Shown piece after piece: positions 4,091 through 63,548 of a stretch of 64,000 nucleotides of DNA; the first letter of the stretch is position 1, and every line of letters starts with the position of its first letter. A program made the position numbers and the translations under genes. The stretch is from assembly GCA_050084515.1 (NCBI GenBank), contig CM114271.1, positions 9,672,001 through 9,736,000 of the forward strand, given 5' to 3'. A model generated the notes under the pieces. That model was not told the DNA's origin. It searched no databases and was given only the letters and a program-made list of their open reading frames with translations. This DNA is from Blasia pusilla. Lineage: Eukaryota.

Positions 4091-4255
4091 ACAATAGAAT
4101 TGAATCCATTGTGTCAGACATTTTCAACTACCAAACTTCATTTTGTTAGTCAAATTTTTTCAGGAGAATATGAGTCCCTATTCATTGTAAATTAAACATT
4201 CTCATTCTCATTCTCATACCAATTCTCTGTCTCCTCCCGATGGAATCTTTTGGGA

Positions 4256-6000
4256 ATGGATAATTATGTGAAGCTCACTTGTGGCAGTCATCTAGCGGCC
4301 CTTCCTCAATCAGAAATCGTTCGATCGCAAGCTTGTGAGTCTTTCATAGTAGTGGATGAAAATTTTCTCCCAAATCTTGCATCAAGGAGAATAAGAGGAC
4401 AGAGCATGTCACTCTACTCCAACGCTGCAAGGACAGCAAAACCTTGAAACAGGCCATGGAATGCCAAGAAGAACTTCATGGGTGGTAGTGGAAGCATGCG
4501 ATTGAGGGGAAGTACAAAGAGTTGTGCTCTTGGTTGAGTTGGTGGACTGTACGTATGAGACAATGGGGAAACTTCATGCGGCAGGTGAGTTCACTATTTC
4601 GTCTTGTCAAGCTCACGCTGAGAATTGTTTGAAAAGTTGTAGCTCAACTTGAGAAGCGTGGGCACAATAGGGATTTCAAATCGAAGAAACCAAGCAATTT
4701 GTCGGATGCAACGGGTTGCCCAAGTGTGCAACCCGTCGGAAACGGACGGGTTGCCTGAGTGTGCAACCAGTCGGAAATCGACGTGTTGCATCCAGAATTT
4801 TGGTGCAACCCGTTTACAAGTATGCAAGTCGCATGTATACAAGGCCTGCAAATAGTTTGACACGCATGAGTTTTGGATGACTTGCACTTGGATCTTCCAG
4901 CCCGGAGTGGCCAAACGTTCTTGCAACCCGTCGGAATTGGATGGGTTGCAGTAGGTGTTTCTTGGGTGTTGCAACACGTCGGGACCCGACGGGTTGCAGA
5001 GTCATTCATGGGATGCCTCGGCCTTGCAACCTGTCTGGTTCCGACAGGTAGCTTATTTCTTTGACTTCTGAGCTATTTTCGTTCCCTTCTAACATTGCCG
5101 TCGTTGCAGGGATTGAACATTCATGAAAATGCCCTGTGCCCCAACACAAGTGGAGCAGAAAGTGTTCATTCCTCCTGGAGGTCCTCACAATCATGCCAAC
5201 GAATTTCACTTGTGGAGGCATGCCAACAAGACCAGGCAAGAGCAATGCTCTGATCTGCAAACATCAATATCTTCCTCACAAAAGGCATAACAAAAGGAAG
5301 GGGGCCTTCGATCTACGAGCTCTATGTCAGGGCGGCTGTGAGATCTGGTGATGAAAAACTCTATGTGGAAGCCTTCAACCGGTGCGTAGCAGGAACTCCC
5401 CTCGAGCAAGACGTACACATTGGTGGGGATATTCGTGGGCGTGTTTCAAGACGTCCCATACAGATGGTGGTAGAGCAGTCCGAGCGAGACTCATGGAGAC
5501 CAGATAAGTATCTTGACTTCAGGCAGGTGAAGAGGCAGCAACGAGGAACGAATCCGGTTATTGATTTGGATGAGGAAATTATGCCACCCAGGTATTCGAG
5601 GACCCTGGACCGCTCCCTAATCCGTGATGGAGTTACTTCTCCAAAATCAGTGAATGTTTTATTTCAAAAGCCCTCCGTTGCTGGAAGTTCGCAACATTTG
5701 GTCGGTGGGGTGGTTCAACAATATGGGATTCCGGTAATGGAGGTGGATTGCAATCTAAAATTGTGGCATATATCTTGGAGCAACCTAGGACGTGGACCCA
5801 CTTGCAGGGCAGGATCTGATGGCATTAGGAGAGCATGCGGCACTTTCCTAAATAAGAATCAGACAAGGATCGGGCGACCCTTTGCTGGGTTTTGGGGACT
5901 CAAAACCTTTGATCGTTACACGAGGACCGAGGATCAATTGAAGTACTTCTTCTACCCAAATGAATCTTGCGCTTTCTGGAAGTCTTATCCGGCTGCCACT
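4256..6000 (+). pseudogene. Gene B (MULE transposase), copy 1; ~1.7-kb internal deletion near 4370 removes most of exon 1; 3' truncated
   Basis: Starts MDNYVKLTCG as at 37693 then jumps to KSCIKENKRTEH; intron ~4584-5109; ORF 5338..6003 matches 40473..41273. Confidence 0.75.
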
Positions 6001-6299
6001 TAATGAGTTCCGTTGGAGACAAATCCGCCGAGAGGCATAGAGACTTCTGACCTGTAATTAAGACCTGTACGTAGTCTTTTTCTTGAACCATATTTTCTGT
6101 GAACTAGAATGTGCTATGACCCAGCTTCTCTTCCTCTCGGGTCGACCTCTGTTTGCTAGGTACCGACTCCTTGTCTATTTCGTAACATTCTAGATAATAC
6201 ACATTAGACGAGGACTTAGTAGCTGTAGTCCGCTCTTGATCTGACGTATAGCCTTCATCGGTCGATGACGTTTCTCCTTGGGGTGGTCGTGATTTCCAC

Positions 6300-15786: not shown

Positions 15787-16200
15787 TGGAGGCGTGGTAA
15801 GAGGAGAGGAAGAGAGGAGAGAGGAAACTACCTTCAACCCAAAGAGACACAATTTTTTGAAGAGAGCTTCTTGTGGTTTGAAGAGAATTTATGTTGGGTT
15901 GAAGAGAGGAAGTTTTTTTTATGAAAATTTTTGCACTTTTTTTCTCTATGCTTAGTCACTCCCACAAATTGGTTTTTTTCTCTTCCACAATCTAGCAACC
16001 CGTCTAAATCCGACGGGTTGCAACTTGCACAAAAGAAAAAGAAAACTGAAAATTTATTGGATTCACAAATGTGGAAAAATTTACTTTTTCCATCCAAGGT
16101 CTGAAAAAAAATCATCATTTTTCCACAAGGGATTAGAGTTCGAGCTCATAGTGAACATTTTTGCACTTCAAAGTACATTCTAAGACCTCATTTTGCATCC

Positions 16201-31509: not shown

Positions 31510-34500
31510 ATGAGACCTGATTTGAGTCCCACCGCCTTCCTCGGCAGTATACCTTGTACGCTCTGCAATGTGACACCCATCCAGTATCAACATGTGCTCT
31601 GTCCTTGGTAATACCATTATGGCAATCGCACAGGTAGTAGGAATCCAACACGTCTGAGAGAAGAAAAGAAGCCTACCCCTGCCTTTACGACTTGAGGGGA
31701 AGGCGCCAAGGGAAGAAGCCCGCCATACCTCTTAAGTTGGACCAACAGGGAAAGAGTCCGATCAAGCAACCTAAACCCTAAACCCTAAACCCTAAACCCC
31801 TGAAAGTCCCACTAAGTCGAACACCAAGTCACCCGGCCTTGAGCAGAGCTCGATGAGCGTTTGCATCAGGGCTGGCAACTTTTCCCTTCCTCCCAAAAGT
31901 GTGGTACTATCTTGCATGTAAATTCCCGGGGGGGAATTGTACAAACTATCTAAGCTGTACCCATCTGAGCATGGATCCACAGGATCCTAGATCTTGAATA
32001 CCTGGAAATTGTGCTCGGGCCGAACGAAGCAATAAACATAGGAGTGGTCCATCTGTAAAGAAGCATGTTGGAAAAAATGTCAGCAACTTGGCATAATGTG
32101 CAACACGTCACCAAAGAACTCGGCTTGACCCTAGATAACTTTTTTCAATTACTAACTTTGGATCAACCTGTCGGAGTCTGACGGGTTGTTTTGTCCCTGA
32201 CCAACCCGTCGGAAGGCGACGGGTTGCTGGCCTAGAGCAGCCCATGCTTGGCTGAGAGCAACCCATCACTTTTCGACAGGTTGCAACTTTACGGAAACAC
32301 AGGGAAAAACCAAAAGCAACTGCAACCCGTCGAGTTTCGACAGGTTGCAGGTACACCACGGTTTTCCCTGTGTTTCTGGGAAAGATGCAACCCGTTGCCT
32401 TTCGACGGGTTGCTCACGGACAAAAACAACGGAGATATACTATCAGGAATTCACACGCATTGAGCCTTACCCGAATTTGAAAATATATTTGAGATTTTAC
32501 TACAGGAATTGAGCCTTACCCGAATCTGACTCGTCACGGATCGGAGTGGGTACTCGTTTTTTATGAACCACGATTGCGCCGTCCTCCACTTTAGCGACCT
32601 CTTGACGCACTGGAGGTTGAAGAGCTCGTCCTCGCTCCCTCCAGTCAACACTAAGAAGCAGACCTTGTCACCCAGATAAGCGTCTGCAAAGGAGAACAAT
32701 AGCGCGATTTGGTCATAAGAGAGCGGCAAATTCCTGCCAGGTACCCCGTCCGACGGATTCTCGCCCCACAGTCGCAACCTTGAGGGCAGATCAGCAATCA
32801 AGAGATCCACCGCAACCTCTTCAACCACTCCATTCAGTGCCCGTTTCGTTGGAGCTTCCGTCCCAACGTTGTCAATTTATCAATGGCTGGTGTCGACGCT
32901 TGAGAACTGAAGCTTTTCAGCTCATCTAGTAAAGGAGTGAACTGAAGGAGGACGCTTGTCTGGGTCGTTGTTTCTCTATGTCTTCCCAAGGATGATGGAC
33001 TGTATTCTCCTTGGGACAACCCTGGCACCTCTCGCTTCCGCTTCTCTCGAGTCTACGAGCGGCTTGTCGGGGTCTCTATGACCTCAGACTCTGGTGGGGT
33101 TTTTTTCGCCGGGGACCTGGTCCGACCCTCTCACCCCGCTCGCCCGGACGATTCTGCCTCTGGCCTTGAATCTTCATCCTCTCTTTGGGAAGACTCGGCC
33201 TCGGAATTCTTCCCTCCCCTCGCCTTGCCTTTTAGACCCGTTGTGGATTTGTCTTTGGCTGTGCGGACCTTGGAAGCCAAGTCAGGTGTCTCGTGGGCTT
33301 GCTCTTCCGCATCTCCTCTAAAGAAGTCTTCAGGCTGCACAAAATTGGGGATTTCGTCTTGTCCTGAGGCCACTGCATCATGAAGCACTCGTAAATCCTT
33401 ATCGGTGATGTCTTTAGGGTCGTTGAAGTCAAGCCAAATGGGGCAATTCTCCACCTCCCAATCGGACATGTGCTGCGCCATCTCCATGTCGTACATGGAG
33501 AATGTCTCTCCATCAGACAGCGAAGCCCACAATTTCAAGGCTGCAGGTAATTTTCCCCAGGTACCTGCATTCTTACAGTGGACGAGGTACCTGAAGACCA
33601 TCCGTTGGGCATCTTTTACTTGAACTGAATCGGCCGTCTACTCCTGTAGATCTCGCTTCTTCTTTGCTTGATCCTGTTTGTTCCCCACGATTTCTTCGTC
33701 AAGCTCTGCTTGAGGGAGGACGCAAACCTTGAACATTGTCTTGAATCCTGGGTTTTTTATTGGCTTGTCCCGAATGTCGTCAAGCCAAATCTCAAGATCT
33801 ACAGAACTTTCCAGGTTTGCTTCATCCGGAATGGGCTCTAATCTTTTGAGCTCCGCTTGCAGACTGTCCAGCACGGACTTCCCGATAACCCGCAACGCGT
33901 CCCAGAACGACCATTCGCGTAGCCACTGGGAGATCACTGGATCGGACACACTCGGAGGATGGTGTGCCACCCTCTTCTGGGTCTCTGTGCCCTCGAGACT
34001 GATTTTCATCAGTCGGATCCTCCTAAACTTGCTTATGCCGGACAACGTAAACCGATGCACGCGATCCAGGGACACTTTCTCCCCAATCCAACCTTGCGGA
34101 TCTTCATCCCTTTTCCGCTGGCGCTTGATAATCGCCTTCAGCTCCTTGTAAAACTCCGGACCAAGTTTGGGGTTGAGAATGATGATGTATCGCTGCATCT
34201 TGCTCGCCGTGTATTTTGTGGCTGCAGATACTGCAGCTTGGATGAATTTCGCGCGCTCACACCCAGATACTTTCTCCCTCCGCTCCAGCTCCAGTGCAGC
34301 GCTCTTCTTCGCGGCTTGTATTTTTGACCAGCAAAGGATGGTTAGGGCTGCATCTTGGGAAATAAACTTATTTGCCCAAGTTTTCATTTTTATCTGTGCA
34401 CCCTTTGCAAGCATCTGATTTACTAGGGCGTCGCCCAAGAACCCCTTGTACTCTGTCGGGTGCATTATAAGCACCTTCTTCACCCGATCGCAATCATGGA

Positions 34501-36362
34501 TCCAGTGGTGGGTGACATTCTCCTCCGATATAATCCTGCATATCCAAACTCAACCCGTCGGAGTCCGACGGGTTATCACAGCTCAAGGTCGGATTCTAGC
34601 AACGATCTAAATGATGCAACCCGTCGGAGTCCGACGGATTGCATTCACATTTGTGAATGCCTGGTTTCAACTCGTCGGACTCCGACGGGTTGTCAGATAG
34701 TCCGTATCAAACGTGAACATAACAACCCTTCAGAGTCTGACAGGTTGCGCAATTGAATGGAAACTTGCAATTTGACGCGAAATTTGCTAAACCAACTTCC
34801 GAATGCAACCGGTCGGACTCCGACGGGTTGCTTTGGGCCAAAAACATACTAAACCTGTAGTCAGTCGAACAACTCGTTGGAGTCCGACGAGTTGCTTTCT
34901 TCAAAAAACATCTTGAAAAGGCGGCGAGTCGAGCAACCGGTCGGACTTCGACGGGTTGCTTTGGGCCAAAAACTTACTAAACCTGTGGTCAGTCGAACAA
35001 CTCGTCGGAGTCCGACGAGTTGCTTTCGGCATAAAATTACCTAACCCATTCATCAATCGAGCAACTCGTCGGAGTCCGACGAGTCGCGTTTGGCCAAAAG
35101 CATCCCAACAACAGTGCCGATCCAAACAACTTGTCGGAGTCTGACGGTTTGCAGCAAGAAGATACTTACGTGTTCATGGCATGCATTGCCATCTCCACCG
35201 TCGCCATGTGATGAGGGAATGGATGAAGGACCACTGCCTTCACGCAAAAATGTGCCTCCAAGGAGTTGGGCCGCTCCTCTGCAAACTTGGTCCACGCCAT
35301 GAACCTATGATTTCCATCCCAGATGAAGAAATACAGAATCCTCATCCAGCTGAATTCCGTGCCCTCTACTTGCCTTCTGAAATCCTGGTCTTTCATCCTC
35401 CAGAATGTGTCGAGCTTATCCAAGTCCTCCTCCGTAACCAGGGCTTGGGTTCCATGCTCGTTGTAAGGCTGAACATAGAAGGGAGGAAAGTTGTCGACGT
35501 AGGATGCTATCGCCGCCGATTGTTAAAGCTTCGCGATGTCCTCGTCAGACTGAATTTCACGAACGTATTCCATTGTCCGCAATCGGCAGAGTGGAATCCT
35601 CGGGGCGTTGTGGCCCTCCATGAGTGCCATCTGCTTTACCACCTGTCAGAACCGGGACAAGATCAATAAGCTACACTGAATTCCCAATGAATTGCAATTC
35701 ACATAATTCAAAAAACCCAGATCCTCTCTTACCCGCTCGAAAATTGGGTCGATTTCTTGACCAGCCAACTTGTTTGAGACAGCAGCTGGAAAATCGACAG
35801 GGAACTCGTCGATCCGATAGAGGTCGATGTTTTCCTCCGGGCTTGGAGACGATAATGACCGCTCTCCGTCTTCTTCAGCAATGTCCACCATCTCCACGCT
35901 GGCGGTCCTCATGACCTCATCGTCCGTGATTTGAACTTATGGCGTTTTCGCTATGTTGATTGTGTCCCCGGACTTCATCGGGGACATTTCCCGCATCTCA
36001 GCACTTTCAGTTGGACGGGCAGGGCTGTCGTCAATAGCTATCGCTTTTTCCCTCCTCGCTTTAGCCAATTCTGCTCTCCTCACCGACGGGTCCAGATGCT
36101 TCTTTTCTTTCTCTTCGTCGGCGATCCTTTTCTTCAAGGCCTACGACGTCTCAGCCTCTGCGTTCTGTCTATCAAGCGACTCTTGAACACGTCTTGCAAG
36201 AAGCTCCTGGTTGTGCATCTCCGCTTCCCTTTCCTGCTCCTCGATTTCCTGCTGCCTAATTTCATTTGCCGAACGAGGCCCTGGAGATGCTGACGGAGGA
36301 GTCCTAATGGACTTCGGAGTGAAGCTCCTAGACTTGTTTGCTTGAGCTTTTTTCCTCGTCAT
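31510..36362 (-). pseudogene. Gene A, copy 4 (coiled coil, ParB/Srx-like, beta-class methyltransferase-like; 4 exons)
   Basis: ORFs 36141..36383, 35646..35912, 35166..35423, 33638..34483, 33131..33601, 32451..32828 and 31792..31980. Confidence 0.8.
31769..31799 (+). repeat. Interstitial plant telomere repeat (CCCTAAA) x~4
   Basis: cctaaaccctaaaccctaaaccctaaaccc read directly. Confidence 0.9.
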
Positions 36363-36719
36363 TTTTCCCGGAAATGCCTCCACCTATGTCCACGATGAAT
36401 CGCTTGATCAGTCGCCTTGCTGATGTCGAGATGAGTCGCCTTGATGGGTAGCTCGAATCGTCTCGCGATCATTCAGTCGAACTGTCTCACTCTCGTTCCC
36501 TCGTATCGACTCGCGATGACTCGCGGTTTGAAACGCCCCTTGGTATCTGATCAGCTGCTGCGCGGGAGAGAGAGGGATGGAGATCGCGAAATGAGAAACT
36601 GGAAATGAGCAATTTTTCCCTATTTATACTTTTCTAGCCGTTGGGCTGACCGTTGGGTCCCGTCGTCCTTTCGACGGCGACGTGCCGGCCGTTACGGAAG
36701 TCGGGACCTGAAAAATGGC

Positions 36720-37470
36720 AACCCGTCGGAGTCCAACAGGTTGCGCGCCTCCGCCGTCCTTGGAAGATAACGTGAGGTGCACGAGCAACCGTCGGAGATC
36801 GACCGGTTGAGCGCCTTTGCCGTCTTCGGACAAGAACGCGAGGTACCCGCAACCCGTCAGAGACCAACAGGTTGCGCGCCTCCGCTGTCTTCGGACAAGA
36901 ATGGGGCGTACCCGCGCAACCCGTCGGAGACCGACATGTTGCGCGCCTCCGCCGTCTTCTGACAAGAACAGGACGTACCCGCGCAATCCGTCGATGACCG
37001 TTGGGTTGCACGCTTCCCTCGGCAAAGGTTAACAACACGGGCTTCCCGCGCAACTCGTCGGAGTTCGACAGGTTGCACGCTTCCTTCACGTAAGCGAAAC
37101 AAGGCGAGGCCCTTGCGCAACTCGTTGGAGGGCGACGGGTTGCACGCCTTGCCGTCTTTGGGCAAATAGGTGCGACACACGCGGAACTCATCGGGAACAG
37201 ACGGTTTGCACGCTTCCTTCATGTAAGTGTTACACCGTGAGATAATTGGGCAACCCGGCTGATGCCGACGGGTTGCAAGCCTCCGGCATCTTTGGGCAAG
37301 AAGGAGCGGTATCCGAGCAACTCGTCGGAGAGCGACGGGTTTCCAACTTCGACCATGTTTGCGTTTGAAGGTAAGGCAAAAGCGTGCAAACCGTCCGAAG
37401 CTGACGAGTTGCAGGCTTCGCTTAGCTTGGGTTAATTGTTGAGTTACCAGGACTTCGACGGGTTCCAACA
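36720..37470. repeat. Intergenic palindrome array, copy 4
   Basis: ~57-61 bp period, homologous to 3095-4090. Confidence 0.9.
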
Positions 37471-37692: not shown

Positions 37693-40600
37693 ATGGATAA
37701 TTATGTGAAGCTCACTTGTGGCAGTCATCTGGCGGCCCTTCCTCAATCAGAAATCATTCGACTGCAAGCTCGTGAGTCTTTCATAGCACTGGATGAAAAT
37801 TTTCTCTCTGTTCGATTTCTTCTCCAAATTGGAACCATCTTTGTATCCAAAGATATTAGGGTGGACGGTACGGAAGACATAATAGGTGAGACAGTCCAGC
37901 AAGTGACTGCAAACCATAAAGTATAGAATCTCCTACCTCTAGCAAATGGTCAATACAAAGTTTACGGCCTACCCGTGAATTTGTCTGTTTCCCAAGTAGA
38001 CGGTGGAGAATTTCCTAGTGCTCCGAGCTCTACGTGTGCAACTCCTAGCTCAGTACATCCGGCTTTGACTCCAACTTCATACGCTCGTATCAATGTAGTT
38101 CTTCCTGAAGAGATTCTGTATGTTATCAACCTCAATGGATCTGTCGAACACCAACCGGGCCCTCTATCCGCCTACTCGTTCCTCTTGCGAGTATCAAGCA
38201 ATAGTTTGCTTTCGTCTCAGGCCTTGAAAATGTTCAAACACATTCTTGTCGACAAGCTGCCCCCCACGTACGATGGTAATTGCATTTTTGAGTTGCCTCC
38301 ACTTGCTGCTCCTGCTCAAAAGAAAGATGGAGGACGCCTGAAGGGTATGGACAGAAAGTCGATTGTCATCGATGGTGCAGGCTTCAACGGACTAGTGCTT
38401 CAATTCCAGATGGTCCTTGGATTGTCTCCCGCCGCCAATGCGTGGGAGCCTTGGAGTATAGAAGTCCAGCATGCCCGTATCTAGAGTGCAACGGGCGAGT
38501 CAATACGTCGCAATTCCCCCCCAAGAATGCAAAAACTCCATACGAGGTCGGTGCCACCATACTGTCGGGAGGCCATCGATGTCCTCATTGTCACGCATTG
38601 CCCTTTTGCATTGGAGCGTGTCCTGCATACATATTTTTCATTGTCCACGACTTGGGCTCCACGTCAGAGTACACAAGGCTGGCAGTTCATGTTGGCTCCC
38701 ACAATCATCCTGTGAACGATGCAATTCAGAGACACATTAAGGAGGATGTGGCGAAGAAAGTTGCCGAGGTCTACAGAAACTCTCCGGGTTCAAAGCCCGG
38801 AGTGATCAAGCTCACAATGGCATCATAAATTTGTGAACAATTGCGTGGAATCCCTGGACAAGGCGAGATCACGGCGGCTAAGGAGAAACAACTCTGGGAA
38901 AATCTCGCATTTCTCGCTAATCCTGAATGCTTCCGGAATTTGCTGCGTCAAATACGAGTTCTGGATGGAAAGACGGCCAAAATGGATGCCATTGCCAGAA
39001 TCAAGGCCAACTACAGATTTCCATTCATTCAGAGATGGCAGTTCATGGGCCAAGGAGGCGAGGGATCCAGGGCCTATGTCTTCAAAATGTCAACCACAGT
39101 CCGTCTGAGTGGCCTCGATCTTATAGATCGAATGAGGGAAGGGAAAGATCTTTACGGCGGTGGGTAAGCTTTGATATTTGCTCTGAGTCTTTGAATGGAT
39201 GGTTGACGATGGGTGCTCACGTTTATGACCATGTGGAGAAGGGACTCAAAACTATATTTGTCTGTGAAGTAAAGGCAGAAGACGTTGGCAGTTTGAAGAT
39301 GTGCTGGTTACTCTTATTGGAGGTGGTGAAGGAAAACAAAAGGCCACCTCCGGAAATTTATGGGTTCATGGCAGATAATGCACAACCTGGGTGGATTGCT
39401 ATTTGGGAAGTGTTATGGGGTGGAGAGGTTCAACCGGAGAGGGAAAGGTCAGATGCTTTATATTGGCAACAGTCTGTGACCCGGTACACCAAATCTTGCA
39501 TCAAGGAGAATAAGAGGACAGAGCATGTCACTCTACTCCAACGCTGCAAGGACAACAAAACCTTGAAGCACGCCATGGAATACCAGGAAGAACTTCATGG
39601 GTAGTGGAGGAAGCATGCGATTGAGGGGGAGTACAAAGAGTTGTGCTCTTGGTTGAGTTGGTGGACTGTACGTATGAGACAATGGGGAAACTTCATGCGG
39701 CAGGTGAGTTCACTATTTTGTCTTGTCAAGCTCACGCTGAGAATTGTTTGTAAAGTTGCAGCTCAGGTTGAGAAGCGTGGGAACTATAGGGATTTCAAAC
39801 CAAAGAAACCAAGCAAGCTGTTGGATGCGACGGGTTTCGCGAGTGTGCAACCCGACGGAAACCGACGGGTTGCATCAAGAATTTTGGTGCAACCCAAGTG
39901 TGCAACCCGACGGAAACCGACGGGTCGTAGAGTCGTTCATGGGATGCCTCGGCCTTGCAACCCGTCTCAATCCGACAGGTTGCAATAGGTGGGTTTAGGA
40001 TTGCAACACGTCGGGACCAGACGGGTCGCAGAGTCGTTCATGGGATGCCTCGGCCTTGCAACCCGTCTGGTTCCGACGGGTTGCAGTAGGCGGGTTTAAG
40101 GTTACAACACGTTGGGACCCGACGGTCGCAGAGTCGTTCATGGGATGCCTCGGGCTTGCAACCCGTCTGGTTCTGACAGGTAGCTTATGTCTTTGATTGC
40201 TGAGTTATTTTTGTTCCCTTCTAACATTGCCGTCGTTGCAGGGATTGAACGTTCATGAAAATGCCCTCTGCCCCAACACAAGTGGAGCAGAAAGTGTTCA
40301 TTCCTCCTGGAGGTTGTCACAAGCATGCCAACAAATTTCACTTGTGGAGGCATGCCAACAAGACCAGGCAAGAGCAATGCTCTGATCTGCAAAGACATCC
40401 CATATCTTCCTCACAAAAGGCATAACAAAAGGAAGGGGGTCGTCGATCTACGAGCTCTATGTCAGGGCGGCTGTGAGATCTGGTGATGAAAAAATGTATG
40501 TGGAAGCCTTCAATCGGTGCGAAGTAGGAACTCCCCTCAAGCAAGACGTACACATTGGTGGGGATATTCGTGGGCGGGTTTCAAGACGTCCTATACAGAT

Positions 40601-41747
40601 GGTGGTAGAGCATTCCGAGCGAGACTCGTGGAGACCAGATAAGTATCTTGACTTCAGGCCGGTGAAGAGGCAGCATCGAGGAACGAATCCAGTGATTGAT
40701 TTGGATGAGGAAATTACGCCGCCCAAGTATTCGGGGACCCCGGACCGCTCCCTAATCCGTGATGGAGTTACTTCTCCAAAATCAGTGAATGTTTTATTTC
40801 AAAAGCCCTCTGTTGCTGGAAGTTCGCAACATCATATCATTGGAGTGGTTCAACAATATGGGATTCCGGTAATGGAGGTGGATTGCAACCTAAAACGGTG
40901 GCATATATCTCGGAGCAACCCAGGACGTGGACCCACCAGCAGGGTAGGATCTGATGGCATTAGGAGAGCATGCGGCACTTTCATAAATAAAAACTGTACA
41001 AGGACAGGACGACCACTGCTTGGGTTTTGGGGACTCAAAACCTTTGATCGTTTCACGAGGACTGAGGATCAATTGAAGTACTTCTTCTGCACAAATGAAT
41101 CTTGCACTTTCCAGAAGTCTTATCCGGCTGCCATTGGAGCTCCGGGCAATACCCCCACGATTTGGCCCAACGCCGTAGGTACGAACTGTACTCAAGACGA
41201 AGTGGACAATCTTACAAGTGCCGGTTTCAGACTCATAGACGGGGGAAGTTTGGATCATGTTCGCATTACATAGACCTTTGCATTTTGTATTCAACCCAAG
41301 ATTGATGTCAACATGTACCCGGAGAAGGTGGATGATCTCAATCCACTATTTCTGTTTGAGTCTAGAAATGGGGTGAAGAGAAACAAAATGTGTAGGCCAA
41401 CGGTGGAGAGAGCAAAGCGAATTGCATAAGCTCGGGAGGCAAAAATAGAGATCATCGCCACGAAAGATGTCCACAGTGGCAATGGAATAGGAAGGATGTA
41501 TTGGGTCAGGAACAACACTGTAAATTTAAGTGTCACAAGGGTGTATGTGGTGCACATCTATTGCTTTCCCATATGTTCATGTGATGACTTTGTCCAAAGA
41601 GAGACAAGTGGAAAAAAATATTTCCCTTGTAAGCACATGTACTATGTATTGCAGGTAGTTGTAAGTGAGTCGGAGGTAGGAGTAGGAATCCACCAACCAA
41701 TTCTGTCCCTCAAAGAAGTGCGAAGTATTTTAAACAAACCACTTTGA
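37693..41747 (+). pseudogene. Gene B: Mutator/MULE-like transposase (GCM-like Cys/His domain, DDE core, SWIM finger); 2 exons, intron 39704-40241
   Basis: WVSFDIC (D1), GFMADNAQPGW (D2), RSDA(F/L)(H/Y)W (C/DxxH position), PNTSGAESVHSSW (E), CSCDDF..FPCKHM (SWIM); GT..CTAAC..AG intron; several stops and frameshifts. Confidence 0.8.
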
Positions 41748-42519
41748 GGATGCAAAATGAGGTTTTAGATTGTACTTTCATTTTTCAAGAACCTTCACTT
41801 TTAGCTTGAACTCTATTCAGCCTAGGGCAAATGGTAGATTGTTTCCGGATCTTGGATGGAAAAAGTGATTGGTTCCACACTTATGATTCCACTGATTTTT
41901 CAGTTTTGTATATTTTGTGCAATTTGCAACCAGTCGGACTCAGATGGGTTGCCAAAATATGGAAGAGAAAAAAGATTTGTGGGAGTGTTTAATAACTGAA
42001 CAAAAAAGTGCAAAAAAATTCACACAAAAAGTTTCCTCTCTTCAACCCAACTGAAACTCTCTTCAAAAAAAAGTATCTATTTCGGTTGAAGGTAGTTTCC
42101 TCTCTCCTCTCTCCTTTCTTCCTTTCTTCCTCTCCTCTTACCGCACCTCCAACCCATCAGGGTTGAACTATTTGCAGGCCTTGCATACATGCAACTTGCA
42201 ACCCGTCGGAATTCGACAGGTTGCACACTCATGCAACCAGTCGGGTTCCAACGGGTTGCACAAACATTCCTCGTGCATGATGTCACGCTCCAATGGGTAA
42301 TACAAACATTCTTGATGCAACCCGTCGGTTTTCGACTGGTTGCACATTCAGGCAACCTGTCGTATCTAACGGATTGCTTGGTTTCTTCCGTTTGAAATCC
42401 CTATAGTGCCCACGCTTCTTAACTTGGGCTGTAACTTTTCAAACAATTCTCAGCATGAGCTCGATAGGACGAAATAATGAACTCACCTGCCATATGAAGT
42501 TTCCCCATTGTCTCATTTG

Positions 42520-42790
42520 TCGTGCGCATACACATCGCTACACAACAACAAAATATCCCTCGGTAGGGAACTCTGGTACCCCTGTACTGCGGACGGAGAC
42601 AATAAGTCGGGAAAACGTAGGCGTAATTGCGCCACATGTCGTAGTGAGACGCGCCTCGCAACATCATCACTCTCCACATACAAGTACTGTTGTACTCGCA
42701 CTCCTGCCTACAAAACAGCAGCTAACCCGGTGCTAATCCCTCCAAAGAGATCTAACACTCGAATACCCTCATCCGGGGTACACCACACAA
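42520..42790 (-). pseudogene. N-terminal part of a C5-cytosine DNA methyltransferase domain (DNMT3-like)
   Basis: IRVLDLFGGISTGLAAVL*AGVRVQQYLYVESDDVARRV..H..LPRDI matches motifs I-III; catalytic PC motif lost by truncation. Confidence 0.75.
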
Positions 42791-42829
42791 TGGGTGTAGT
42801 ATCCAAGGGTGTCATCGTAGCACTCCCCG

Positions 42830-45569
42830 CTACCTCGGGTTCCTCGGACTGCCACGCCTGGGTGCATACGCCCGCTCCACGCGGTGATGCACGCAAGATC
42901 GCGCTAATCGTTGAAGCTCCTCAGTCGAGCCCCACAACGGCACCTCTCCTCCACGGAATGATGCAGCTACCATAACACTCCTCTCCATAGAAATGTCAGG
43001 AACAGGAGTATCCTCTGCATGGACATGTCCCTCAATCAAATCACTAGGCCAAGTGATGGCACTGCTAAATGCTGCTAAGGTCGCCATCTCTCCTGGCCGT
43101 TGCTCGATCACTGCACTTGTGAATCGAACGGGTATTGAGCTAAGGCACCCATCACCTGACTTCCATCCTCGTCTGTAGGACGCTGACTCCTCCCAGTAAT
43201 CCAGGGAAAACCCCATCGGGTATAACACTGCTCCACCAACCAAGACGTCGTAGGACTCAGCATCAGTCACTATCGCCTTGGCGCGCACCACGGACTCATC
43301 TGTAGGATGTCCCGGGCGAATCCTCACCACGACCTCCTCTCGGGTGATATATTGTGTGGTACTTGCTCCACCCAAGGATGTCTGTATCCGAAATGGACAA
43401 CACTCCACATCGGCTCTCGTCAAGCCCAATCCTCTGAATGACGCTTTCCCCAACATCAAGGGTTGCGCTCCTGAATCCAACAAGACGCGTTGCGGACTAA
43501 AAGCTCTACCTCCAAGACTCACCAACTGGAAGACCTCTCCTTGGTTATCCAGAAACACAACACCAGGAGAAGCCATGGCACGCTCTATCGCGGGTCTAGC
43601 GGGCATCTCCGCCATCCTAGCGACATGACCATGACTGCCATGAATCGGCGTGGGCGGCCCGAGCATCCGCTCCAAGGGCAGGTCCATCACCTCCTCTACA
43701 ATCACCTCGAACGTGATGCAGAACTTCAACTCGCTCACATAGTGAAGCGGCCAAAAAAAGCCTCGGCGGGCGTACCTCCCAACGTCACAACATCGGAAGC
43801 AGAAAATAAAGGAGTGCGGTACACAATGGTGGCCGCCCCCAACAACGTGCTCGACACATGCCCCTCATGAGCATCAACAATAGGAGTCGTCGCACTTGCT
43901 TCTCCCATCGCCCTTCGTGCTTGCACACCAACAACATTACCAACTCTCCAGGAACTTTGATGAGGACCCATCGATGAGGTCCTCATCGCTTCGCACAACG
44001 TGAAAGATTGAGGAAGCCTAGTCGTCATCGGCTTCCCCCCCCGTGGATCCAACTCTACGGCGCTCCACGCGTCGTCAAGCTGGGCGGCCTCCATCTGGGC
44101 AACCCCGCACATCCATCCAGGATCCTCTAGATCTCTGGCTGCTCCATATGATGTCGATGCCACGGATCCGGCATCGGGTAACCTCAATGCCATAGCGGCA
44201 ATCTGCTCTTGTAGCTGTTGTATCGAGCGACCATCCGGCCTCACGTCCGGCATCTCCCTCGGCGCGTCTAGGTGGTGGTACTCTACCTCCTCCACAGGCA
44301 ACTCCACCACCCTGTCGGGCAACTCCAACTCCTTGTCCCCCAACGGGACCACCTGGAGCATGATCTCTGGGCCCACCCGGACTGGCTACTCGCTCTGGTG
44401 CCCTCTTTGGCCCTCGGTCCAGACGTAACTCAGGATGTAAACGAAAACACCTGGCGCGTGTATGACCATACCTCTGACAATAGTCACACTGATAACCTCC
44501 TGGTGCAGCACCATCTCCTCCTCCATGTTGAGGCACACGTCCATGACCCTGACGAGTGCAATGCAATACCGATGATGGGCTCCACCACATGACCAATAAG
44601 TAATAGTAGGCGGCTGCTGCTGAGCCGCATATGAAGGCGCAGGTCTCTGTGGCACGGCCTCTCGGTATCCTCCCTGAGCTTGTGGTGCCACAGTCGACCT
44701 ATCTCGGAGTCCACGTTGCTACATAGGTGGTGCAGACAATCGTGACTGCTCTCGCCCAGAACCCATGGTGGCCACGCTCTCCTCCGCCATGTTGCGCTCA
44801 ATGTTCTCAGCGGTCCTAAAAACATCTCTCAACGTAGGGAAGGTGTTCATAAGAAGCACCCCTCCCGCACCCGTGTCCGCAAGGTCCGGTCCAGCATCGC
44901 ATACCATGACTGGATAGCCTGAACCTCTGTCACCCCCCGAGTGGCGTTGATCAACCGGGCGCAGCGAGTGTAAGCCTCACGCAAACTCTCACCCGGCGCC
45001 TCGAAGTCGTGGATGCTCCGCAACTTCTCCGTCACGCACCCCCGATAGCTTGCCCTCAACTCAAGCAAAGAACTCAACCACGAGGGGTTGAACCGGGACG
45101 AACCCGACTAGACGATGCAATCGCTGCTCCCGTGTGAGTGACCCTCCTAAAACGTCACTAGTGGAAGAGGCGAGCCTCTCCCGACTCCTCCTCCTCATCA
45201 TCGGGAACGGCTCCGCCCATGACACATAATGTGGGTCATAGTAGAGCCTACACGCCTCGATCTCACATGCATATCTCGAGAGAACTCATGGTAATCGTCC
45301 ATGGGCGCCCCCTCTAAATCTTTGGAACATACCGTTCCATGTCAGAACGGGTTAAACTCTCTAGAGTTCCCGGCCCGCTGGGAGTCGCACCAACTCCTAA
45401 ACTCTACTATAAAATCGTGCAACTCAATCGTGCCTACTGCACCTGAAAACCTACGCGGTCCTCTACCCTGGTCGTCCATCTCGTACGCCCAACTGGTAGG
45501 ACCACTCACAATGTGTGGCGATGTGCTCACAAACTCCTCTACACCCTCCCCCTCGTCTGACGATGACAC
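42830..45569 (-). pseudogene. gag-pol: gag-protease portion of the retroelement polyprotein
   Basis: RFSG..ELHDFIVEFRSWCD; ESLREAYTRC; knuckle CDYCQRYGHTRARC; protease VLLDSGAQPLMLG and YDVLVGG. Confidence 0.8.
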
Positions 45570-46050
45570 AGAAGGAGGTCGAGGTGGTCCCTCACGTGGA
45601 GACCCTCGAAACCTCGCGCCACTCCGCGTAAAACCTCTAGAGCTACTCTCGGGTTCACCACCTCGCCTCTTAAAGTCCCGAACAGACTCCGTGATGACCC
45701 TCGTGCCCCTCTCACCCGATCACTCTGAACCTCGTGAGGAATCCCTCAATCACTCATCCCAAACATGCGGCACTCGATCTACACTCTCTCTCCCCGAGAC
45801 GTGTAACGTGCGGCAACACGCGGCGTGGTGCGGCAAATCGACCAGGCTATCATCTCATCGACAACCTACCCTCAACACCGGACATCCCACATAGGTCTAT
45901 GTCCCCTAAACCACATACATAAATGATGCTCTCAGCATCCACACACCCAATATCCCCAAATAAATCCCAGAATCCCTCACACGTGCAGGGTAAAGGACCA
46001 AAATGGGTAACCTGAACACATGTCGATGTCGCTCCTCAGCAACTGCAAAT

Positions 46051-46130
46051 CTCATAGTCGATCATATACTCAAAATCGATCATATACTCATAGTCGATCA
46101 TATACTCAAAGTCGATCATATACTCAAAAT
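46051..46130 (+). repeat. 18-bp tandem repeat x4 (a(a/t)agtcgatcatatactc)
   Basis: Read directly in the 5' region of the retroelement. Confidence 0.9.
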
Positions 46131-48439
46131 GGTACTTACCTAAAATAGTAAGTTCCTCAATATGGCTCCAAATGAGCCGAAACGAAGGGGAAACCTGCTA
46201 TCTCAGGTTTCAAAGGGCCACAGCAGGTCACCCTTGACCTACTGGGCGTGTCCTCCACTACTCATGAAGGCGCTCTATTAGATCCCACTAATCTATCCTA
46301 AAAGACGTGACACATTCGTACAGTCCACCAAATGAGCCAAGAGCACAACTCTTTGTACTTCCCCTCAATCGCATGCTTCCTCCACCACCCGTGTAGTTCT
46401 TCTTGGCACTCCATGGCCTGTTTCAAGGTTTTGCTATCCTTGGAGCGTTGGAGTAGAGTGACATGCTCTGTCCTCTTATTCTCCTTGATGCAAGATTTGG
46501 TGTACGGGGTCACAGACTGTTGCCAATGGAAAGCATTCGACCCGTCCCTCTCTGATTGAACCTCTCCATCCCAGAACACTTCCCTGATAGCAATCCACCC
46601 AGGTTGTGCATTGTCCGCCATGAATCCATAAATTTCCGGAGGTGGCCCTTTTTTTTTCCTTCACCACCTCCAATAGGAGTAACCAACACATCTTCAAAGT
46701 GCCAACATCTCCTGCTTTTACCTCACAGACAAATATAGTTTTGAGTCCCTTCTCCACATGGTCATAAACATGAGCACCCATGGTTAACCATCCATTCAAA
46801 ATTATGTAGCAAATATCAAAGCTTACCCAGCTGCCGTAAAGATCTTCCCCTTCCCTCATTCGATCTATAAGATCGAGGCCACTCGATGGGCTTGTCGTTG
46901 ATATTTTGAAGACATAAGCTCTCGATCCTTCGCCTACCAGGCCCATGAACTCCCATCTCTGAATAAATGGCAATCTAGAGCTGGCCTTGATTCTGGAAAT
47001 GGCATCCATTTCGGCCGGCTTTCCATCCAATACCCGTATTTGATGTAGCAAATTTTGGAAGCATTAAGGATCAGCGAGAAATGCGAGATTTTCCCAAAGT
47101 AGTTTCTCCTCAGCATCCGTGATCTCGCCCTCCCAAGGATTCCAAGCAATTGTTCTCAAATTTGTGATGTTGTTGTTAACTTGATCACTCGTTGCTTTGA
47201 TCCCGGAGAGTTTCTATGTACCTCGGCCACTTTCTTTGCCACATCCTCCTTGATGTGTCCCTGAATTACACCGGTAATAGGATGAATGTGGGAGCCAACA
47301 TGAACTGCCAGCCTTGTGTACTCGGACGTAGAAGTGAAGTCGTGCACAATAAAAAAAATTTATGCACGACACGCTCCAACGCAGAAAGGGGATGTTTGAC
47401 AATGAGGACATCGATGGCCTCCCGGCGGTATGGTCGCACCGACCTCATATGGAGTTTCTGCATTCTTAGGGGAAAATTGTGATGTATTGACTCGCCCATT
47501 GCGCTCTATATACGGGCATGTTGGACTTCTACACTCCACGGCTCCAACGCATTGGCTGCGAGAACAATCCAAGGACCATCTGGAATTGAAGCACTAGTCC
47601 GTTGAAACTTGCACCATCGATGACAATCACACTTTTTGTCCATACCCTTCAAGCATCCTCCATCTTTCTTTTGAGCAGGACCAACAAGTGGAGGCAACTA
47701 AAAAATGCAATTACCATCGTACGTGGGCGGCAACTCGTCTACAAGAATGTGCTTGAAAATTTTAAAGGGCAGAGATGACAGCAAACTATTTTCTCGATAC
47801 TCGCAAGAGAAACAAGTAGGTAGATAGAGGACCTGGTTGGTGTCCGACTGTTCCACTAAGGTTGACATCCGGTATGTCTTCAGGAAGTACAACATTATTA
47901 CGAACGTGTGAAGTTGGAGTCAATGCCGGATCTACTGAGCTTGGAGTGGAAAACGTAGAGCTAGGAAATTCCGGACCGTCTACTTGGGAAACATAGGAAT
48001 TCAGAGGCAAGCCATAAACTCTGTATTGACCATTTTTTAGAGTTAGGAGATTCCATACTTTATGGTCTGCTTTCACTGGTTGGACTGTCTCATCTACAAC
48101 GTCCTCCGTACCGTCCACCCTAACATCCTTGGAAAGAAAGATTGTTTCAATTTGGAGAAGAAATTGCACTGAAAGGAAATTTTCATCCACTGGTATGTAA
48201 GATTCACGAGCTTGCGGTCGAACTATTTTTCATTGAGGAAGGGCCGCTAGTTGACTGCCACAAGTGAGTTTCACATAATTATCCATTCCCAAATGATTCC
48301 ACTGCATGGAGAATGAGAATAAGAATAAGAATGAGAATGTTTAATTTATAGTGAATAGTGATCGTTATTGTCCTGACAAAATTCGACTGACAAGATGTTG
48401 TTTGGTAGGTGAGATTGTTTGACGGAATGGATTCAATCT

Positions 48440-49325
48440 TGTTGCAACCTGTTGGAGTCCGACGGGTTGCAAATTTTGGGACTCAGACACGTGGGTTGCA
48501 AAGCCACAGAGTACCATCTTCTGTATGAGTCCGAGTGCAACTTGCAACCCGTCAGAGTCCGTTGGGTTGATACCCCCTGCCTGTCTGACCTGTGTGATTG
48601 GAGTCGGGATTTGCTAACATCGAGACATGAGACGTCGCATGGATTTGCTACGGCAACCCGTTGGGGCCTACGACGGGTTCGAAAAGCACCTTACCTCGCT
48701 TTCCCTTTCAGATCTCGCATTGATTTCTCTTGTCCGATGAATTGTGCAAACCAAAAGTGCAGATTTTCCGGATGGTGGGAAGTGTCCTACCTAGGGTAGA
48801 GCTTGTAACCCGTTGGAGGGAAACCGCTTGCCTCGGGACTATGCTTTGTCACATTGTTACCCGAGGACGAGGAACGCGTGCAACGCGTCAGTCTCTGAGG
48901 GGTTGCGCGGGTACCTTGCCTTGTTACTCCAAGATGGGGGAAGTGTGCAACCCGTCGACCTCCGACAAGTTGCACGGGAACCTCACCTTGCTACCCCAAA
49001 ATGGGGGAAGCGTGCAACCCGTCGGTCTCTGACGGGTTGCACGGTACCTTGCATTGTTATCCCAAGACCGAGGAAGTGTGCAACCCGTCACTCTCCAACG
49101 GGTTGCACGGGTACCTCGCATTGTTACCCCAAGACTGGGGAAACGTGCAAGCCATTGGTCTCCGACGGGTTGCTTGGATTCCTCACCTTGTTACCCGAGG
49201 ACAAGGGATCTGTGCAACTCGTCGGTCTCTCACAGGTTGCCTCAGTAACTCGCCGTGCATCCCCAAGACAAGGGAAGCGTGCAACCCATCGGAGACCGAC
49301 GGGTTGCTTGGGTTCCCACTTGCAA
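48440..49325. repeat. Intergenic palindrome array, copy 5
   Basis: ~66-bp period with a linker family (gggtacctcgcattgttaccccaag) different from copies 1 and 4. Confidence 0.9.
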
Positions 49326-61200: not shown

Positions 61201-63548
61201 TCCTTATCGGTGATGTCTTCAGGGTCGTTGAAGTCAAGCTAAATGGGGCAATTCTCCACCTCCCAATCGGACATGTGCTGCCCCATCTCCATGTCGTACA
61301 TGGAGAATGTCTCTCCATCAGGCGGCGAAGCCCACAATTTCAAGGTTTCCGGTAATTTTCCCCAGTTACCTGCATTCTTACACTGGACGAGGTACCTAAA
61401 GACCATCCGTTGGGCAGCTTTTACTCAAACTGAATCGGCCGTCTGCTCCTGTAGATCTCGCTTCTTCTTTGCTTGATCCCGTTTGTTCCCCTCGATTTCT
61501 TTGTCAAGCTCTGCCTGAGGGAGGACGCAAACCTTGAACATTATCTTGAATCCTAGGTTTTTTATTGGCTTATCCCGGATATCGTCAAGCCAAACCTCGA
61601 AATCTACAGAACTTTCTAGGTTTGCTTCATCCGGAATGGGCTCTAATCTTTTGAGCTCCGCTTGCAGACCGTCTAGCACGGACTTCCCGATAACCAATAG
61701 CAGCCCCAAAGACGACCATTCGCGTAGCCACTGGGAGATCACTGGATCGGACACACCCGGAGGATGGTGTTCCGCCCTCTTCTGGGCCTCTGTGCCCTCG
61801 AGATTGATTTTCATCAGCCGGATCCTCCTAAACTTGCTTATGCCGGACAACGCAAATCGATGCACGCGATCCAGGGACACTTTTCGACGGATTGCATTCA
61901 GATTTGCTAATGCCTAATGAGGGAATGGATGAAGGACCACTGCCTTCACGCAAAAATGTGCCTCCAAGGAGTTGGGCCGCTCCTCTGCAAACTTGGTCCA
62001 CGCCATGAACCTGTGATTTCCATCCCAGATGAAGAAATACAGATTCCTCATCCAGCTGAATTCCGTGCCCTCTACTTGCCTTCTGAAATCCTGGTCTCTC
62101 ATCCTCCAGAATGTGTCAATCTTTTCCAAGTCCTCCTCCGTAACCAGGGCTTGGGTTCCATGCTCGTCGTAAGGCTGAACATAGAAGGGAGGAAAGCTAT
62201 CGACGTAGGATGTTGTCTCCGCCGATTGTTTAAGCTTCGCGATGTCTTGGTCGGACTGAATTTTGCGGACGTATTCCATTGTCTGCAATCGGCAGAGTGG
62301 AATCCTCAGGGCGTTGTGGCCCTCCATGAGTGCCATCTGCTTTACCACCTGTCAGAACCGGGACAAGATCAATAAGCTACACTGAATTCCCAATGAATTG
62401 CAATTCACATAATTAAAAAAATCCAGATCCTCTCGTACCCGCTCGAAAATTGGGTCGGTTTCTTGACCAGCCAACTTGTCTGAGAAAATCTGGAAGCTGG
62501 AAAATCGACTGGGAACTCGTCGATCCAATAGAGGTCGATGTCTTCCGCCGCGCTTGAAGACGAGAATGACCGCTCTCCGGATTCTTCAGCAATGTCCACC
62601 ATCTCCACGCTGGCGGTCCTCATGACCTCATCGTCCGTGATTTGAACTTTTGGCATTTCCGCTATGTTGATTGTGTCCCCGGACTTCATCGGGGACATTT
62701 CCCGCATCTCAACACTTTCGGTTGGACGGGCAGGGCTGTTGTCAATGGCTATCGCTTTTTCCCTCCTCGCTTTAGCCAAGTCTGCTCTCCTCACCGACGC
62801 GTCCAGATGCTTCTTTTCTCTCTTTTCGTCGGCGATCCTTTTCTTCAAGGCCTTCGTCGTCTCAGCCTCTGCGTTCTGTCTATCGAGCGTCTCTTGAACA
62901 CGTCTCGCAAGAAGCTTCTAGTTGTGCATCTCCGCTTCCCTTTCCCGCTCCTCGATTTCCTGTTGCCTAATTTCATTTGCGTTTAACGAGGCCTCGGAGA
63001 TCTTGACGCAGAGTCCTAATGGACTTCGAGTGAAACTCCGCACTTGTTTGCTGTGATTTTTCCACGTCATTTTTTCCGGAAATGCCTCCACCTATGTCCA
63101 CGATGAATCGCTTGATCAGTCGCCTTGCTGATGTCGAGATGAGTCGCCTTGATGGGTAGCTCGAATCGTCTCGCGATCATTCAGTCGAACCGTCTCGCTC
63201 TCGTTCGGTCGAACCGTCTCGCTCTCGTTCCCTCGTATCGACTCGCGATGACTCGCCGTGTGAAACGCCCCTTGGTATCTGATCAGCTGCTGCGCGGGAG
63301 AGAGAGGAATGGAGATCGCGAAATGAGAAACCGGAAATGAGCGATTTAGGCCCTATTTATACTTTTCTAGCCGTTGGGCTGACTGTTGGGTCCCGTCGTC
63401 CTTTTGACGGCGACGTGCCGGAGGTTACGGAAGTCCGGACGTGAAAAATGGCAACCCGTCGGAGTCCGACAGTTTGCGCGCCTCCGCCGTCCTGGGTACG
63501 TCGCCACGTGCGGAAGAAACCCGTTGGAGACCGATGGGTTGAGCACCT
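58239..63548 (-). mobile_element. Mutator-like element copy 6: right terminus and gene A on minus with several deletions
   Basis: Starts GGGGGCAGGTATTCTGGCA, the reverse complement of the 14383 end; very similar to copy 4. Confidence 0.8.
59294..63070 (-). pseudogene. Gene A, copy 6
   Basis: ORFs 62405..62848, 61914..62348 (DGNHR), 61425..61880, 60654..61085, 60090..60299 and 59886..60077 (VFDLVGLSGASIKGAWESGRNILCLE). Confidence 0.8.

Follow-up and report, generated by a model that had tools for sequence, protein, structure and literature searches.

Introduction

Some retrotransposons encode the very enzyme that normally serves to silence them, a rare and as yet unexplained turn in the conflict between genomes and transposons. 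Whether such an element is present in Blasia pusilla is the question raised by a stretch of 64,000 nucleotides of its genome (positions 9,672,001 to 9,736,000 of the forward strand of contig CM114271.1, GenBank assembly GCA_050084515.1), which is referred to here as the window and whose own numbering is used throughout. An initial annotation, made from the letters alone, had described a retroelement at 42518-46312 in which a C5 DNA methyltransferase (DNMT) directly follows the protease (PR). The present analysis indicates that this locus is very probably one non-functional copy of a Ty3/gypsy-type family, the complete members of which encode gag, a CCHC knuckle, a protease and a DNMT3-like methyltransferase in a first open reading frame (ORF1), followed by an in-frame stop and an ORF2 with reverse transcriptase (RT), RNase H (RH), integrase (INT) and a PHD finger.

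Boundaries of the insertion

Self-BLAST of the window and alignment of the junctions delimit an insertion that codes on the minus strand:

42518..46312, minus strand: whole insertion, a decayed and internally deleted Gypsy-DNMT3-type retroelement of 3,795 bp with TG...CA ends, supported by empty sites and by colinearity with Marchantia polyproteins
42514..42517, no strand: left copy of the target-site duplication, CATT, present once only in the empty paralogues (joint 42513>46313)
46313..46316, no strand: right copy of the target-site duplication, CATT, from the junction alignment

The host repeat occurs uninterrupted at 39896-38490 and at 4754-4370 (reverse strand in both cases), where the counterparts of 42294-42516 and 46313-47500, the sequences on either side of the insertion, adjoin each other; these two paralogous sites make the limits of the insertion exact. 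CATT is single in both of them and double around the insertion. The insertion starts with TG and ends with CA in either orientation, and the window copy thus has the TG...CA ends and the short target-site duplication of a Ty3/gypsy element. The empty form was also sought in public data with the same species label, namely the contigs of two DNA data sets (X1 and X2) and two raw RNA-seq runs (X21 and X22). The joint 42513>46313, which has a 4-letter ambiguity ('both' = 4), was found in two X2 contigs and in 8 and 16 RNA reads. The exact boundaries and the CATT duplication given in the initial annotation are therefore borne out by the empty paralogous sites as well as by the empty-form joint in the reads. 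As with its relatives, integration of the copy, here into another repeat, duplicated 4 bp of target sequence.

Coding content and decay of the window copy

Within these limits, the following parts of the element were recognized, listed from its 5' end to its 3' end:

45801..46312, minus strand: 5' terminal non-coding repeat region 'A', resembling a long terminal repeat (LTR) and starting TGTCACGT, putatively assigned by analogy to the 342-bp A repeat of relatives
44569..45479, minus strand: gag-like region that opens with the ATG at 45479, its frame being shifted near 44855 and interrupted by a stop at 44719-44721
44447..44488, minus strand: CCHC zinc knuckle, CX2CX4HX4C, in a third reading frame, with 76% identity to residues 334-354 of Marchantia protein P0002
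42860..43621, minus strand: aspartic protease region, with LLDSGAQ at 43463-43483 and YDVLVGG at 43232-43252
42548..42833, minus strand: start of a DNMT3-like C5 methyltransferase, ~95 N-terminal residues that reach from motif I to about motif III and stop short of motif IV
42518..42547, minus strand: the element's true 3' end, of which the last 30 nt (ending CGCACGACA) are kept and directly abut the methyltransferase remnant

In tblastn comparisons, gag, knuckle, linker, protease and methyltransferase N-terminus form one colinear series with polyproteins of Marchantia polymorpha (seven proteins). The gag region is 45% identical to residues 9-215 of P0002 and also matches residues 213-337 of P0005, and the linker between knuckle and protease aligns to residues 402-546 of P0002. 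The protease region is 47-52% identical to seven Marchantia proteins over 255-274 aa (52% over 258 aa for residues 590-846 of P0002), and the methyltransferase N-terminus is 65% identical over 97 aa to residues 858-954 of the same protein. The order gag, knuckle, protease, methyltransferase within one element, as read in the initial annotation, was thus confirmed. The gag with CCHC knuckle and the retropepsin D(S/T)G motif that are expected of Ty3/gypsy elements are recognized by direct reading together with homology to relatives; Pfam gave nothing above threshold on the window ORFs and reported no zf-CCHC match for the knuckle.

The remainder of a functional element is missing. With RT-, RH- and INT-bearing proteins as tblastn queries, no match to any of these three domains was found anywhere in the window, and nothing beyond 42543. 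The pol order RT-RNase H-integrase is accordingly not in the window copy; it was found in full-length relatives (ORF2 of L004, L032 and L023). Self-BLAST detected no internal or terminal direct repeat within 42518-46312, and the copy thus lacks the two identical LTRs expected of the group. Judged by the coordinates of the tblastn high-scoring pairs against P0002, the reading frame shifts at least five times (frames 2>0>1>0>1>2), in addition to at least two in-frame stops. The window copy is dead and not a working gene, and it is not expected to give rise to an active enzyme.

The putative inner end of the A region at 45801 (ACGTTACA) was placed by a short terminal inverted repeat alone; the 342-bp A repeat of the relatives runs from TGTCATGA to CGTGACA. 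At 46058-46130, the 5' non-coding region of the element contains a tandem repeat with an 18-bp unit (4.1 copies, 92% matches; Tandem Repeats Finder), and many loose ends of reads at 46108-46134 suggest that the copy number of this repeat varies among family members.

Identity of the methyltransferase fragment

Motif I of the fragment, IRVLDLFGGISTGLAAVL, lies at 42764-42711 and is followed by an in-frame TAG at 42707-42705 and by AGVRVQQYLYVESD, with the motif II region at 42666-42686. The FxGxG signature of motif I in C5 methyltransferases, which binds S-adenosylmethionine, is present, since LDLFGGISTG at 42711-42764 aligns to motif I of DNMT3A. Identity of the fragment is 63-65% to the full-length Marchantia proteins P0001, P0002, P0005 and P0007, and 55-59% to P0003, P0008 and P0023. 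A 135-aa translation of the fragment, in which X stands for the stop, was compared with 1.84 billion representative proteins and gave 423 matches at E<=1e-3 and 43 at E<=1e-10, the best at 1.2e-31; judged by these scores, its match to methyltransferase-bearing proteins is far beyond chance. Among 20 of the matches that were scanned with Pfam, picked mostly for length, the DNA_methylase family (PF00145) was found in 13, and wherever retroelement domains were present it lay inside the polyprotein. The ESM Atlas yielded generic DNA_methylase clusters only.

The DNMT3-style reading of motifs I-II in the initial annotation also holds. All 17 best Protein Data Bank (PDB) sequence matches of the fragment are DNMT3A or DNMT3C, on the motif I-II region and at E values of 0.01-0.035. 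The best such match of the intact relative P0004 is DNMT3A (3.6e-11), followed by DNMT3C, DNMT3B, tobacco DRM (1e-6) and M.HaeIII. The alignment of P0004 with DNMT3A covers motifs I, IV, VI and VIII in unrearranged order, and a weak second stretch corresponds to the C-terminal end. From the window copy itself, the catalytic motif IV (PC) as well as motifs VI (ENV), VIII (RxR) and X have been deleted, the homology ending at ~42548. A lack of the remaining methyltransferase motifs in full-length relatives had been named in the initial annotation as a reason to abandon its claim; in these relatives, the PCQ, E.V and HR.R..WTN columns are invariant in 7/7 aligned sequences, and motifs I, IV, VI, VIII and the C-terminal block remain readable.

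A fragment of a host DNMT3 gene that adjoins an ordinary Gypsy element, or was transduced by it, would likewise place a methyltransferase next to a protease without being integral to the polyprotein. Such an origin could be argued from the failure of Pfam to recognize the fragment and from its position in another reading frame than the protease ORF. It is nevertheless extremely improbable, because the same PR-to-DNMT junction is colinear in seven Marchantia proteins and recurs in named proteins of Calypogeia, Sphagnum and Closterium and in dozens of metagenome copies, and because the piece lies inside an insertion bounded by a target-site duplication and is followed by the element's own terminus. 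A chimeric, mis-annotated gene model as the source of the junction is argued against by the uninterrupted ORF1 of L004. The methyltransferase is therefore best regarded as an integral part of the retroelement polyprotein.

Internal deletion with retention of both termini

The last 30 nt of the window copy are identical at 22-25 of 30 positions, ungapped and end-anchored, to eight termini of full-length relatives (binomial P about 2e-9 for 25/30). No protein alignment of the fragment extends past residue 123-124, at ~42548, and 61 (X21) and 91 (X22) RNA reads match 42518-42547 and then diverge exactly at 42547, with diverging letters that resemble the 3' region (B, see below) of the relatives. 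Taken together, the conserved 30-nt terminus, the common stop of the alignments and the divergence of the reads point to an internal deletion rather than a 3' truncation. By these alignments, the copy is internally deleted with both termini kept and is not simply cut off after the start of the methyltransferase. The deletion begins directly behind methyltransferase motif III and extends up to the last 30 nt of the element, and motifs IV-X, RT, RH, INT and PHD were lost by it. It joined the methyltransferase remnant to the last 30 nt, and the remainder of the copy has decayed by frameshifts and stops.

Comparison of the 3' end with the 5' region of the same element gave no significant similarity, the score of the last 15-60 nt being equalled by 215-418 of 500 shuffles. 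An LTR remnant at this end is thus not supported, and the end instead matches the distinct 3' terminus of the relatives. The same shuffles, together with the lack of a second long repeat in the insertion, would be expected of a 3'-truncated or abortive insertion, such as a partial cDNA caught at a double-strand break with CATT as repair microhomology. This origin is very unlikely, given that the closing 30 nt correspond to the 3' terminus conserved among full-length relatives and that these relatives also end without a conventional 3' LTR copy, yet have 4-bp target-site duplications in 4/4 cases. The deletion may have arisen before or after integration.

Architecture, ends and selection of full-length relatives

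A search with the protease ORF returned 25 proteins at E<=1e-3, 14 of which carry PF00145 in precomputed annotation. The domain order PR...DNMT...RT...RH was found in P0008 and P0023 (both Marchantia) and in P0206 and P0215. An intact example is the metagenome element L004, in which ORF1 (976-5082) ends with the DNMT domain and, after one in-frame stop, ORF2 (5086-8226) in the same frame encodes RT, RNase H, Integrase_H2C2, rve and a PHD finger as recognized by Pfam; no terminal repeats were found within its contig. Named sources of elements of this kind, here called type A, are Marchantia polymorpha, Calypogeia fissa, Sphagnum troendelagicum, S. fallax, S. jensenii and Closterium sp., and the window element is about equally distant from all of them (~50% identity in the protease and 55-65% in the methyltransferase N-terminus). 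Where divergence can be measured, the DNMT domain of complete relatives is, by sequence comparison, under purifying selection: the ratio of nonsynonymous to synonymous substitution rates (dN/dS) is 0.13 for L004 vs L003 (dS 0.26) and 0.17-0.18 for L001 vs L013 and L002 (dS ~1.7, near saturation).

One family of ~9-kb type A elements is multi-copy among 70 metagenome loci, with 85-93% nucleotide identity among near-full-length copies. All its copies start TGTCATGACC, upstream of which the sequences are unrelated in 11 copies, and the right end ...TATTCGCACGACA is followed by unrelated DNA in L010, L019, L022 and L055. With A denoting the 342-bp repeat and B the last ~108 nt, the relatives have the form A-internal-B or A-internal-B-A-B, in which the second A is never terminal. 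A 4-bp target-site duplication flanks 4/4 relatives with both ends:

L010: duplication TACA, form A-internal-B
L055: duplication ATTA, form A-internal-B
L034: duplication AAGG, form A-internal-B-GC-A-(6 nt)-B
L040: duplication CACA, same long form as L034 but rearranged, with 15 nt after A

The second A in L034 and L040 is followed by 6 and 15 nt, respectively, of the sequence that normally stands after A, and then by the B repeat. A B-GC-A junction is also shown by L013. The junction between the 3' end and the second 5' repeat, ...CACGACA-NN-TGTCA... (L034:10345-10360; L013:14400-14415), is a near-palindrome like the LTR-LTR circle junction of retroviruses. The split-repeat layouts could have arisen from circular cDNA opened at this B-end/A-start junction; alternatively, recombination of the two B copies in the long form might have yielded A-internal-B.

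The stop between the two frames is conserved as well. At 28 of 31 metagenome loci, the frame is first interrupted upstream of RT by a TAG or TAA at a constant distance, with CAA or CAG as the next codon (e.g., L004:5083-5091, L034:6940, L001:4509 and L028:10754), in the contexts TAG or TAA then CAA CCC, TAG CAA CCA, TAG CAA CTA and TAG CAG TTA; the three loci that do not show it are L011, L033 and L043. In plant viruses, the UAG-CAR-YYA context is leaky. By analogy, the pol of type A elements may be produced by read-through of the conserved stop, and the methyltransferase would then be made at the level of Gag as the C-terminal part of ORF1 (Gag-PR-DNMT). The enzyme might methylate cytosines de novo, either on cDNA of the element itself or on chromatin.

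The family in the source organism

At a likeness of at least 85%, 93,692 (X1) and 11,929 (X2) contig pieces were placed on the stretch, and up to 112 different contigs carried a variant letter at single positions. So many pieces and variant letters indicate that the family is multi-copy and diverged. RNA reads across the whole element numbered 1,785 (X21) and 1,739 (X22), drawn from ~6% and ~12% of the runs. In each of the 29 bins that contain reads, first mates on the plus strand outnumbered those on the minus strand, by a factor of about 4 to more than 300; for most stranded libraries this means minus-strand RNA, i.e., the sense strand of the element.

The joint 46312>42518 with two letters in between (GC or AC, plus strand) is carried by 8 X2 contigs and by 24 and 35 RNA reads. 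Read against the relatives, it is the junction of B end, two letters and A start, occurring in the window's own family. The window copy itself holds the A start and only the last 30 nt of B, and the full A-coding-B-A-B layout was read in the relatives L034 and L040. That a related methyltransferase-bearing lineage has been active in this genome, as the initial annotation proposed, is supported by the relatives with PR-DNMT-RT order, by the many diverged copies and by the sense-strand RNA; its inference of a probable land-plant genome agrees with the named relatives.

Between 42200 and 46700 of the window, the differences between copies are mainly transitions, and C or G in the window against T or A in the reads outnumbers the reverse (205 vs 117 in X1 and 443 vs 168 in X21). 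A bias of this kind would fit deamination of methylated cytosines among the copies, the direction of change not being established.

The presence of relatives in the same organism also bears on when the deletion took place. The window copy could be a mobile, non-autonomous deletion derivative in which the deletion preceded integration (e.g., during reverse transcription), the integrase of full-length relatives acted in trans, and decay came later. Both termini and a clean 4-bp duplication are intact, full-length and transcribed relatives appear to exist in the same organism, and retroviral and LTR integrases need the terminal bases only. Against this sequence of events, no second copy with the same deletion junction has been shown, the placement of reads did not separate the window copy from possible sisters, and a later internal deletion within a full-length insertion would yield the same structure equally well. 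A derivative of this kind is a tentative possibility.

Assessment of the evidence

Several observations weigh against this reading and have to be set beside the evidence given above. The RNA stems mostly from paralogues and not from the window copy, only 28 and 40 reads being at least 99% alike to the latter. The complete methyltransferases were all read in proteins and metagenome loci of relatives. The Pfam match of the window protease to Asp_protease_2 is weak and sub-threshold (E 0.098), and the direct match of the fragment to DNMT3A is weak as well (E 0.01). The DNMT3-like assignment comes from sequence matching and not from a tree with canonical plant DNMT3, DRM or the Klebsormidium sequences. 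As for selection, the decayed pair L013 vs L002 has a dN/dS of 0.86, as expected of dead copies, and most other pairs are saturated (dS undefined), which leaves 3-4 informative pairs.

The fragment of 135 aa also gave 0 Pfam families at E<=1 and hence no match to PF00145. The initial annotation had named a miss against the DNA_methylase profile as grounds for giving up the methyltransferase claim, and on this point the result formally goes against it. The relatives score 26-51 bits against PF00145 (cut-off 22), and in nine relatives with a match the best-matched stretch starts at profile position 45 or later. The miss is thus explained by the loss, in the window copy, of the part of the profile that is matched in the relatives (position 45 onward).

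Type B elements and a possible history of the capture

A second large Gypsy group, here called type B, has the order RT-RH-DNMT-INT-PHD and comprises the proteins P0062, P0075, P0089, P0102, P0127 and P0172 and the loci L023, L032, L037, L038 and L044. Its named sources are the chlorophytes Haematococcus lacustris, Monoraphidium neglectum and Chromochloris zofingiensis. Type B sometimes has an added Tudor or G-patch domain, and motif IV of P0075 reads EC in place of PC. The protein P0104 (1,417 aa), which combines a C5 DNA_methylase domain with a Dam-type N6-adenine methyltransferase domain, may belong to a DIRS-like element.

The two types share the same three modules at similar divergence, the identity between L004 and P0075 being 43% in RT-RH, 46% in INT-PHD and 42% in DNMT; they differ in that the DNMT lies between RNase H and integrase in type B and between protease and RT in type A. 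Near-equal divergence of the three modules, assessed without outgroups, fits one ancestral DNMT-bearing element in which the module moved later, and is not proof of it. It is possible, though doubtful, that a single ancient capture of a DNMT3 took place in a PHD-finger-bearing green-plant Gypsy lineage which has persisted since before the chlorophyte/streptophyte split and is not specific to Klebsormidium. Under such a history, the module would have moved within the polyprotein, giving RH-DNMT-INT in chlorophytes vs PR-DNMT-stop-RT in Closterium, liverworts, Sphagnum and the window's organism. The streptophyte methyltransferase would be made in Gag-like amounts as the C-terminus of ORF1, with pol reached by read-through of the conserved UAG-CAR stop, and the A-internal-B or A-internal-B-NN-A-x-B layouts would come from circular cDNA opened by the integrase at the near-palindromic junction. 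If this is true, continued transcription of the family in a land plant would allow the function of transposon-encoded DNMTs to be tested in a tractable bryophyte such as Marchantia.

Surroundings of the insertion

The insertion lies in a host repeat, the two parts of which adjoin it as follows:

42294..42516, no strand: left flank, unclassified host repeat, 85-86% identical to 39896-39674 and 4754-4555
46313..47500, no strand: right flank, continuation of the same host repeat, 88% identical to 39676-38490 and 94% to 4557-4370

This repeat is present in at least three copies in both orientations at 78-94% identity (38490-39896, 4370-4754, 15787-16448, 41500-42516 and 46313-47500), and its uninterrupted form is crossed by RNA reads. 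A CxC...CxH pattern at ~41430-41747 looks SWIM-like by eye only. A SWIM-like, MULE-type identity of the repeat was considered and discarded as an unsupported impression by eye, Pfam having found 0 families in five ORFs of the flanking repeat. The window is almost wholly repetitive. A further repeat of several kb occurs in three copies (1-3750, 33599-37450 and 61404-63500, spaced by 33.6 kb and 26.7-27.8 kb), each with arrays of 64-bp and 67-bp tandem units (1272-1645, 3087-3756, 34735-35172 and 36782-37450), and a similar 67-bp array is found at 48849-49307.

Comparison with known systems

Gypsy-DNMT3 elements in a streptophyte have been known since 2018, and the window locus itself is an ordinary dead transposon copy. 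What is added here is the spread in bryophytes, including a model species, the sister architecture in chlorophytes, the putative read-through stop, the PHD finger and the 4-bp duplications with split repeats. The green-plant record of DNMT-bearing retrotransposons has so far consisted of Klebsormidium only, and the occurrence of relatives in Marchantia polymorpha, Calypogeia, several Sphagnum species and Closterium points to an old and persistent DNMT-Gypsy association rather than a lineage-specific accident. It also makes it possible to study, in hosts amenable to genetics, what benefit a transposon draws from a DNMT of its own.

In the full-text literature, exclusive of subscription journals, Repbase and PDF supplements, no report was found of DNMT-bearing retrotransposons in liverworts, mosses or Closterium or of the chlorophyte type B; the same holds for 'Chlamyvir' with a methyltransferase and for split direct repeats combined with Gypsy and an integrase. 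No printed name was found for the order RT-RH-DNMT-INT-PHD. In the preprint 10.64898/2026.05.21.726589, the 2018 paper is cited for 'streptophytes (Gypsy-DNMT3)' only.

Canonical DNMT3A, 3B and 3C are the best PDB matches of the window fragment (E 0.01) and of P0004 (3.6e-11), and they share the motif order I-IV-VI-VIII-X with the relatives. They differ from these in that Pfam reported no PWWP or ADD domain in the 55 proteins scanned, in that the domain is here embedded in a retroelement polyprotein, and in an identity of only ~25-30%, as estimated by eye from the P0004 alignment.

The DIRS/PAT-like tyrosine-recombinase retrotransposons, including SymbioDIRS-Dnmt3, also have split direct repeats of the form A-coding-B-A-B, and some carry a DNMT3, as described in PMC5890265. 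Unlike these, the relatives reported here have a DDE integrase (Pfam rve and Integrase_H2C2) and 4-bp target duplications, and no tyrosine recombinase was seen in them. Membership of the DIRS order was rejected on the grounds of these two integrase families and of the duplications.

The closest counterpart is KnitGypsy-Dnmt3 of Klebsormidium nitens (de Mendoza et al. 2018, Nat Commun 9:1341, PMC5890265), and the Klebsormidium precedent named in the initial annotation is real. In that paper, the acquisition is placed 'in the K. nitens lineage', Sorghum, Selaginella and Physcomitrella are the only land plants shown in the species table, and de novo CG methylation by other retrotransposon DNMTs is reported in yeast, with a role on element cDNA or chromatin proposed for these DNMTs. 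No Klebsormidium protein was among the named matches of the searches for relatives, and the hosts here are liverworts, Sphagnum, Closterium and the window's organism, whereas KnitGypsy-Dnmt3 resides in Klebsormidium. Kinship with the Klebsormidium elements is suggested by shared architecture and repeat layout and not by a tree. As described there, KnitGypsy-Dnmt3 is of the Gypsy type and has an unrearranged DNMT3-like domain with conserved catalytic residues inside the polyprotein, as do the relatives reported here; the window copy retains the N-terminal part of this domain and the relatives the whole of it. Its Ka/Ks is given as below 0.2, compared with 0.13-0.18 for the relatives, and the layout 'A-coding-B-A-B' in a figure legend of the same paper is that of L034 and L040, the B-end/A-start junction of which is also found in the reads of the source organism.

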